Under the pieces are notes generated by a model, which saw only the letters and a list, made by a program, of their open reading frames with translations, did no database searches and was not told the origin of the DNA. From Selaginella moellendorffii (taxonomy: Eukaryota > Plantae > Lycopodiophyta): 64,000 nucleotides of DNA. Positions 22,301 through 24,087 of this stretch are shown one piece after another (position 1 is the stretch's first letter; each line of letters begins with the position of its first letter). The DNA is taken from contig NW_003314349.1 in assembly GCF_000143415.4 (NCBI RefSeq), forward strand, positions 443,172-507,171, written 5' to 3'. The position numbers and the translations under genes are program-made.

Positions 22301-24087
22301 CGGACAATGTGGCAATGAAACACTTCTTGTCACAGCCCGACCTAAGGGGAAAACAAGGTCGGTGGGCCAATGCTTTGGCCGAGTTTGATTGCGAGATCCT
22401 GTACAAGCCTGGGAAGAGCAACATCGTGGCAGATGCGCTAAGTCGAAAAGCGAGCTTGAAGTTGGCGATATCTAGCGCGACAGCAACCTTTTGGGACGAT
22501 GTGCGGACCGCATACGAGAGTGATGGTCTAGCACAAGAAGTGTTGCTGAGGAATCTGGAGGCGCGGGAAGCTCACCAGAGAGGTGAGCTGCCAACGGAAG
22601 AGAAAACGGGCTATGCGGAACGCAACGGACTCATATATTACAAGCAAACGAGGGTGTATGTTCCAGAAGGGGAACTAAGGAAGGTAGCCTTGGAAGAGTG
22701 TCATGACGGACCTCTCACGGGACACGGCGGAGTGCCCAAGACGATGGGCTTACTCAAAAGGAAGTATCACTGGCCGGATATGGCTAAGGACGTCCAAGAC
22801 TATGTAAAGACATGTCCAACATGTCAGCAGGTCAAAGCCGTGACGAAGGCTAGTGGGGGCTTGTTGCAAAGCATCCCCATTCCAGATCGTCCGTGGAAAT
22901 GTCTCACGATGGACTTCATCACGGGACTACCCCCAAGCGAGGGGTTCGATGCGATATTCGTGGTGGTGGACCGATTTTCAAAGATGGCACATTTCATACC
23001 CACCACAACGGATGTGGATGCGGAAGGTGTGGCAAAGCTGTTCTTCGAACAAGTGGTTCGAGTGCGGGGAAGGCCGGAAGAGATTATCTCAGATCGAGAT
23101 AAGATCTTCACCAGTAGGTTCTGGAGGACACTCCTAGAACAGTATCGCACCAAGTTGAAATTCAGCACGGCCTATCACCCACAGACAGGTAATGGGTATT
23201 GAGTCAAGATTGATGGCACTAACACTTCTTGACAGACGGACAAACGGAAAGGGTGAATAGGCAGCTGGAGGATTATTTGCGATGCTATGTCTCGGGAGAC
23301 CAGACTGACTGGGTAAGTCATTTGGGACTTGCGGAAATGTGTTATAACAACTCACCACATTCGAGCATCGGGGTGAGTCCATGGGAAGTCATCAATGGGC
23401 GAGCTATTGAAGGTCCTGTGGAACTCGGCGTGGCCGAGTATCATGGAGAGTTACCCGCAGTGGAGGCATTCACGGCGGAAAGACTCAACATTTGGAATCT
23501 AGTGAGGGATTCCTTGGAACGGGCTCAACAAAGGCAAACTAAGTACGCGAACCAAAAGCGTCGAGATGTGGAGTTCCAAGCTGGGGAGAAGGTGTGGCTG
23601 AACACCAAGAACCTCAGGCTACCAAGTGGGATCAGCCGGAAGTTGACCCAAAGGTAAAAATGCATGTATTCCTGTAAATGAATTGATCTTGAGTTCCTTA
23701 AGCAGGTTCGCGGGGCCTTACGAGATTGAGGCTCGAATCGGTAAAGTGGCTTACCGTCTCCGACTTCCTCGAGAGATGGGGAAGATGCATCCCGTGTTCC
23801 ACGTGAACTTACTCAAGCCGTATTTTGAGGATCCGCTTCGCAAGGACCAAGTAAGACCTTTACCTGAGGTTATCCAAGGGGAGGAGGAATACGAAGTCGA
23901 GGCCATCCTCAATACGCGCAAGAGCAAGCGACAAGGACGCGAGGTGAGAGAGTTCCATGTGAAGTGGAAAGGATTTCCACACTGCGAAGCAACATGGGAA
24001 CCGGAGGAGAACCTAGCGAATGCGCGAGATCTAGTGGAGGAATTTCTGCATGGCAGAACTCTATGTACTTATGCAAAGTTCAATTAA
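19318..24087 (+). CDS. Gag-Pol polyprotein of element C; exons 19318-23188, 23236-23653, 23706-24087; 1556 aa if spliced
   Basis: CCHC knuckle [14 protein letters not shown], protease LIDTGA, RT YIDD, RNase H DASD, integrase HHCC and MDF/IISDRD/QTER, GPY motif, chromodomain YEVEAIL...VKWKGF...TWEPEENL. Removing two GT-AG segments restores HPQTDGQTER and KLTQRFAGPY. Confidence 0.9.
23189..23235 (+). other. Putative spliceosomal intron 1 in integrase (47 nt); counterpart in B at 16636-16682 (minus)
   Basis: GTAATG...CACTAAC...CTTCTTGACAG: donor, consensus branch point, pyrimidine tract and acceptor. Contains an in-frame stop. Confidence 0.88.
23654..23705 (+). other. Putative spliceosomal intron 2 in the integrase C-terminal region (52 nt); counterpart in B at 16166-16217 (minus)
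   Basis: AG|GTAAAA...TTAAGCAG|GT, AT-rich, with an immediate in-frame TAA. Confidence 0.88.

Follow-up and report, generated by a model that had tools for sequence, protein, structure and literature searches.

Loss of introns is a textbook mark of retrotransposition. The P element, in which splicing of intron 3 decides whether the strand-transfer enzyme is made, is a DNA transposon without an RNA step, so that retention of the intron poses no problem there. The closest precedent for the element described below is Ogre of pea and Medicago (Ty3/gypsy, Tat), which retains a genomic intron between protease (PR) and reverse transcriptase (RT) that some of its transcripts lose by splicing and that must be removed for the downstream Pol to be translated (PMC6317226; PMC3735527; PMC12786077). 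In the Ty1/copia elements BARE1, EVADE, and copia, spliced and unspliced RNAs coexist and only the unspliced RNA is copied (PMC3735527; PMC5580714), and barley BARE1 is reported to have separate pools for translation and packaging, its spliced RNA never having been found as DNA (PMC3735527). A 2025 review names Ogre, EVADE, and BARE1 as the spliced LTR elements of plants (PMC12786077). In foamy viruses, a spliced RNA distinct from the genome gives rise to integrase, which must reach the particle in trans (PMC3705302). Introns also survive retrotransposition in Penelope-like elements, but these lie outside the LTR elements and lack a DDE integrase (PMC8557442).

The element that we describe here, a chromovirus of Selaginella moellendorffii whose measurements match those of the published family SM1-Galahad, carries two short introns inside integrase (IN), one of which splits the catalytic triad. 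The Ogre intron gates all of RT, RNase H (RH), and IN in an element that is not a chromovirus, whereas here RT and RNase H lie upstream of both introns, the stretch from Gag to the integrase core is unbroken, and a chromodomain is present. In BARE1, EVADE, and copia, the full polyprotein is read from unspliced RNA, and splicing yields an RNA for Gag alone; the present element reverses this arrangement, its spliced RNA being the only one to encode the full polyprotein. The foamy virus pol RNA is a gag-less, subgenomic RNA from which one large intron is removed, whereas the spliced RNA of the SM1 element is just 99 nt below genome length (PMC3705302). The sequence-only reading that first pointed to this locus had set it apart from known splicing cases by its position in the element, and the position does differ; the logic of splicing in order to read Pol, however, is already known from Ogre, which makes the case less unprecedented. 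Our literature search, outside which lay Repbase, subscription journals, and some supplements, returned no report of introns in SM1-Galahad or inside the integrase of any LTR element, and the available parts of papers on Chlamydomonas and Ectocarpus contain nothing on introns of this kind.

Copy C (18111-25638, 7528 bp; Table 1) lies in the window, the whole 64-kb stretch of DNA that was analysed, and both of its flanks carry the 5-bp target duplication TTTAT. Its two LTRs differ at 8 of 1148 positions, and the 5' LTR contains degenerate 12-nt repeats, a poly-G tract, and a TATA-like site near LTR position 444. The primer-binding site (PBS) is presumably of the tRNA-Met type, as in the published description of the family. 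The domain order between the LTRs, Gag-PR-RT-RH-IN, together with the target duplication, is that of chromoviruses (Ty3/gypsy). The chromodomain at the integrase C-terminus, a chromovirus trait (PF00385, E 1e-16 in Pfam), occupies a frame separate from the main ORF in the unspliced sequence and becomes continuous with integrase only once both introns are removed. A DNA transposon of the Ginger/GingerRoot kind was considered and rejected, since RT, RNase H, LTRs, PBS, and polypurine tract (PPT) are all present. The older copy B belongs to the same family; its LTRs differ at 35 of 1073 positions (3.3%) and its coding part contains several stops. Copy C sits within the RT region of copy B, a member of its own family in the opposite orientation. 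The LTR divergences (35/1073 vs 8/1148) indicate that B and C are separate retrotransposition events of different age, and their different 5-bp target duplications (TTTAT, TAAGT) likewise point to two events.

Table 1. Coordinates of the features of copies C and B within the window.
Feature	Position	Strand	Description
5' LTR, copy C	18111..19258	+	1148 bp, TG..CA ends
Primer-binding site, copy C	19259..19275	+	tRNA-Met type (presumed)
Exon 1	19318..23188	+	Gag, CCHC, protease, RT, RNase H, integrase zinc finger, core to HPQT (Pfam)
Intron 1	23189..23235	+	47 nt, phase 1; contains stop of the unspliced frame (23200-23202)
Exon 2	23236..23653	+	third catalytic residue E and remaining integrase core
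Intron 2	23654..23705	+	52 nt, phase 2; if retained, stop at its start
Exon 3	23706..24087	+	GPY/F (SH3-like) module PF24626, chromodomain PF00385, final stop
Polypurine tract, copy C	24472..24490	+	
3' LTR, copy C	24491..25638	+	
Copy B, older, same family	14235..29420	-	interrupted by C; target duplication TAAGT
Intron 1, copy B	16636..16682	-	2 substitutions vs C
Intron 2, copy B	16166..16217	-	1 substitution vs C

SM1-Galahad was described by Novikov et al. (2012) as a chromovirus of S. moellendorffii in the Galadriel/Galahad clade, with hundreds of copies about 95% alike and none found intact (PMC3350952). The published element is about 7.5 kb long, with LTRs of 1076/1146 bp and TG..CA ends, a poly-G tract of 11-25 bp, a tRNA-Met PBS, and a PPT, and it has a truncated 3885-bp ORF followed by two short ORFs of 316 and 309 bp, the last with a chromodomain; it was read as an ORF lacking the chromodomain plus two extra ORFs (PMC3350952). 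Copy C agrees in ORF length (3885 bp in both), total length (7528 bp vs about 7.5 kb), LTR length (1148 vs 1146), and its poly-G, PBS, and PPT features; its downstream first-ATG ORFs have 106 and 103 codons (318 and 309 bp, stop excluded), the first being 2 bp off the printed 316 and the second carrying PF00385. The element thus matches SM1-Galahad by published measurements, not by direct sequence comparison. Since the SM1-Galahad consensus is broken in the same way, it provides independent support that the breaks are family-wide. As to whether the arrangement had been reported, a point left undecided by the sequence-only reading, the family and its broken frame are in print, and the terms "intron" and "splic" have no occurrence in the main text (PMC3350952). 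The sister family SM2-Galahad of the same genome has the same domain order with chromodomain but, unlike SM1, a single unbroken ORF of 1577 aa (PMC3350952), and given that single ORF the introns are unnecessary for such elements.

The unspliced ORF of copy C (19318-23202) encodes 1294 aa and ends in YHPQTGNGY, with the stop four codons past HPQT. Joining the three exons gives one 1556-aa frame with no internal stop that ends in the chromodomain, as had been predicted, and retention of intron 2 ends the frame at codon 1430. The first two catalytic D residues of integrase are in exon 1, and the E that had been proposed as the third residue of the D,D35E triad comes to stand 35 residues past the second D only when junction 1 is joined, so that intron 1 splits the third catalytic residue from the core; intron 2 cuts off the SH3-like module and the chromodomain. 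The ORF end, the coordinates and lengths of the two segments, their GT..AG ends, and the CACTAAC motif (14-20 nt before the end of intron 1) all proved to be as first read, and copy B does have both segments, with every substitution outside GT and AG. No clear branch motif is found in intron 2. The donors are CAG/GTAATG (intron 1) and AAG/GTAAAA (intron 2), host donors include GTAATC and GTAAAA, and the AT contents of the introns are 0.60 and 0.67 vs an exon GC content of 0.51. Their sizes had been likened to those of short host introns; in fact both fall below the size range of the 11 host introns that RNA confirms in the window (56-105 nt). Around the first stop there are 40 possible GT..AG pairs (40-120 nt), of which 8 open the frame and only the proposed one yields the conserved motif; at the second site 6 of 18 pairs open the frame, and RNA uses exactly the two proposed pairs. 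Intron 2 contains a second AG, 3 nt upstream of its acceptor (23700-23705), and splicing there would also keep the frame, with one extra residue; the contig from run X1 splices to the distal of the two. From the GT..AG ends, host-like donors, AT-richness, precise removal in RNA, and presence in DNA, we conclude that the segments are most probably spliceosomal (U2-type) introns. The 64-kb window holds no other, introner-type copies of the intron sequences, and Selaginella is unnamed in the main text of PMC12130899.

That the segments are spliced, as had been proposed, is borne out by RNA, if thinly. A single 1083-nt contig from X1, a run whose RNA status is a guess, skips both the 47 and the 52 nt with GT..AG ends. 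X17, which is RNA-Seq on record, contributes five aligned reads, one of which skips the 47 nt with a short side of 41 nt. As a control, a stretch that includes host genes was searched as well, and X3 and X4 are RNA since 11 host introns are spliced. Among the matches listed for X4, one piece ends at 16163 and another starts at 16216 at equal depth (7.33), which, from these piece ends, is the intron-2 junction of copy B. A spliced junction is therefore seen in 3 of 6 RNA runs and 3 of 4 studies, each intron in two studies. In X3, a 614-nt contig covers intron 1 in full, with no gap, and extends into intron 2; it represents either unspliced RNA or library DNA. Expression of the element is low, with 5, 2, and 0 element reads of 9,211,280 in X17, X18, and X19. 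Two X18 reads match for about 46 nt at the border of exon 2 and intron 2 (23626-23679) and then diverge from the window. Another X3 RNA contig starts about 30 nt behind the TATA-like site (LTR position about 473; LTR of copy B, 14235-14909) and runs via the LTR end into the PBS, which is a weak hint at the transcription start site, as contigs cannot show starts. Stop read-through or frameshifting as a way past the stop is ruled out by the exact GT..AG skips in RNA.

The introns are also present in genomic DNA. Runs X11 and X14 are low-cover DNA runs, as follows from their contigs running through the host introns and from the contrast in depth between the element (50-1500) and host genes (0-5). 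A 567-nt contig of X14 spans intron 2 without a gap and accounts for all the depth there (51.7 of 51.7), and one contig of X11 spans the same intron, again with all the depth (132.2 of 132.2), also at 18 nt from the donor; inside intron 1 the depths in the two DNA runs are 109.8 and 115.8. Among the matches listed for X11 and X14 there is no spliced joint at either intron. Both introns are thus in the dominant genomic form, although contigs drop rare variants, so that a minority of intronless copies is unbounded by these data. The dominant DNA form, together with the two copies with different target duplications, upholds the earlier claim that the introns are retained through retrotransposition. 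The spliced contig of X4 and the intron-bearing contig of X14 have the same alleles at all seven listed places, three of them with an allele found in neither B nor C, and these common alleles link the RNA that is spliced to DNA that bears the introns.

By their substitution pattern, the exons behind the stop are under purifying selection and hence translated. In exons 2-3, X1 and C are set apart by 13 differences; silent changes make up 11 of these, where a share of 0.29 is expected under transition bias (p = 6e-5), and from this silent excess translation of the part behind the stop follows. In the covered part of exon 1 the figure is 15 of 16. The majority alleles of the DNA runs, of which 40 of 381 were listed and the 20 between 15820 and 17715 classed, show 5 silent differences and 1 replacement from C in exons 2-3. 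Copies B and C differ in exon 1 by 100 silent changes, 51 replacements, and 4 stops, and in exons 2-3 by 6 silent changes, 5 replacements, and 1 stop; the latter holds no silent excess, a pattern expected if B decayed after insertion, and lends no support. The divergence of B and C is lower in exons 2-3 (12/800) than in exon 1 (155/3857; p = 2e-4), and X1 vs C shows no significant drop in exons 2-3 (p = 0.16, silent sites). The low B/C divergence in 23160-24060 may stem from past recombination or from constraint acting on splicing signals.

Compared with the relatives found, the two segments are insertions. At junction 1, 115 of 120 homologous proteins align without a gap (4 are uncovered and 1 has one gap), and at junction 2, 78 of 120 do so (23 uncovered, 19 with 1-13 gap columns). 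In an alignment with Ty3 Gag-Pol, exon 1 ends at residue 1267 and exon 2 begins at 1269, which leaves one split codon at junction 1. A census covered 95 related loci in the DNA of metagenome and viral contigs (38-52% identity) and found no insert of at least 16 nt at either site: site 1 is free of insert in 93 loci, with 2 uncovered, and site 2 is within 15 nt in 72, with 23 uncovered, where the same measurements on the window give 47 and 52. The site-1 census is partly circular, as the search patterns contain the unbroken motif; among loci also bearing an upstream pattern, 35 of 37 are unbroken at site 1 and 2 are uncovered. Eleven proteins terminate at most 25 residues from the HP motif, 8 of them beyond it, which contig ends could explain. 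A pattern for the site-1 intron had no match in viral contigs, and a protein scan of the viral contigs found no relative. Protein and HMMER searches returned no close relative, the best being 57% identical, and no annotated spliced protein of the family. In the gypsy remnant A of the window, the motif at 47570-47596 does lack an insert, as had been noted, but it is decayed, reading HP, a stop, and SNGLVE. The related loci and the unbroken ORF of SM2-Galahad make it most likely that the SM1 branch acquired the introns.

The window contains further elements and host genes. A young non-coding LTR element at 36264-43540 (minus strand) has 1145-bp LTRs that are 99.65% alike, the target duplication ACATG, a PBS, and a PPT; its longest open frame is 102 codons, it has no match among 352 retroelement proteins, and its LTR has a 108-bp block with poly-G and TATA-like site in common (83%) with the LTR of C. 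Being non-coding, it needs an active partner in trans. It is inserted in an older non-coding LTR element at about 30791-46010 (plus strand), which in turn sits in remnant A (30176-30809, 46004-47710); the PBS and PPT of the older element are nearly as in C and its LTR carries a related 12-nt repeat array (about 70%), so that it is possibly a non-autonomous partner of the SM1 family. The host genes within 3000-12700 and 48800-54100 include a phospholipase D-like gene (7 introns spliced) and a minus-strand B-box-like gene with 4 introns, both crossed by one X4 contig, as well as SET domain, cyclophilin, Cu/Zn SOD-like, Kazal-like, and UFD1/zinc-finger genes. A 27-nt repeat array at 1129-1378 is proline-rich on the minus strand and extensin-like by appearance.

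No RNA other than the doubly spliced form encodes all of the third catalytic residue, the SH3-like module, and the chromodomain. We propose that the doubly spliced mRNA is likely the sole source of complete integrase with chromodomain, which would act in trans, and that unspliced RNA is likely the template for reverse transcription, and the element would then be autonomous only via splicing. Such a division between a spliced mRNA that supplies integrase and an unspliced template, with two RNA pools as in barley BARE1, is in our judgement quite probable. New copies are made from RNA and the dominant DNA form is intron-bearing, so the copied RNA must be mostly unspliced, and spliced RNA would have to be excluded from, or outcompeted in, reverse transcription, since otherwise the introns would be gone within a few cycles. 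The introns are very short (47 and 52 nt), which may make splicing incomplete and so allow an unspliced pool to remain. That unspliced RNA may also be translated, giving Gag-PR-RT-RH and a catalytically dead integrase stub, has about an even chance of being correct, and such translation would raise the particle proteins relative to integrase.

In its full form, our proposed mechanism is that the integrase active site is assembled only by splicing and that two RNAs 99 nt apart in length are sorted, the unspliced RNA being copied and also translated into particles that contain RT but lack working integrase, and the spliced RNA giving the integrase-chromodomain protein in trans while barred from copying. 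We hold this full form tentatively, at somewhat under an even chance. Such a gate is slightly favoured by where the introns lie: both come after RT and RNase H, in the final 800 of the 4671 coding bases, and gag, PR, RT, and RH have none (about 3% by chance, a post-hoc figure). Rather unlikely, in our view, is that the introns are neutral passengers, where the template pool would never be spliced or translated (uncapped as in BARE, and from another start site) and the introns would be cost-free, gate nothing, and produce no dead integrase. This account has its two-pool core in common with the sorting mechanism, and their likelihoods overlap; the difference concerns regulation. BARE1 has such pools (PMC3735527) and SM2-Galahad does without the breaks, and because the stop in a retained intron 2 is part of its GTAA donor and both intron lengths shift the frame, no special stop needed selecting. 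The stop kept in intron 1 of copy B had been taken as a sign of function, which it is not, since retention of 47 nt shifts the frame anyway. Against the neutral account, the location of both introns in those last 800 bases means that retention spares all that is needed for particles and cDNA.

We consider it improbable that spliced RNA is not excluded at all, with intronless copies formed regularly but rare, short-lived, or failing in replication, and the intron form dominant by selection among copies. A single-ORF element normally packages its own mRNA, and contigs cannot reveal rare forms. The X1 and X4 contigs nevertheless keep the spliced path, suggesting that splicing is not rare there, and yet, at 18 nt from donor 2, intron-bearing contigs account for all the DNA depth listed. 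Very improbable is a defective subfamily, in which intron-bearing copies would be non-autonomous and depend for mobilisation in trans on an intronless master or on SM2-Galahad, with splicing incidental or the "spliced" contigs being intronless DNA. The two non-coding LTR elements of the window, one of them young, indicate that mobilisation in trans occurs in this genome, and the 2012 paper reports no intact copy (PMC3350952); what argues against such a subfamily is the silent excess behind the stop, the purifying selection on exon 1 between B and C, the alleles common to spliced RNA and intron-bearing DNA, and the finding of junctions in RNA runs and none among the matches listed for DNA runs. 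Assembly errors or random insertions with GT..AG ends, to which the number of frame-opening pairs at the two sites might lend some colour, can be dismissed, as the same segments occur in two copies and two DNA runs and the RNA skips are exact.

If the sorting of spliced and unspliced RNA proposed here is correct, the efficiency of splicing would be a host-controlled switch between the making of cDNA and its integration. SM1-Galahad, a family filed as without an intact copy, is probably autonomous, and surveys based on ORFs overlook elements built in this way. In this family of high copy number, the catalytic gene needed last has kept two ordinary short introns, and the difference of 99 nt makes the family a natural reporter of the way in which an LTR element distinguishes its mRNA from its genome.
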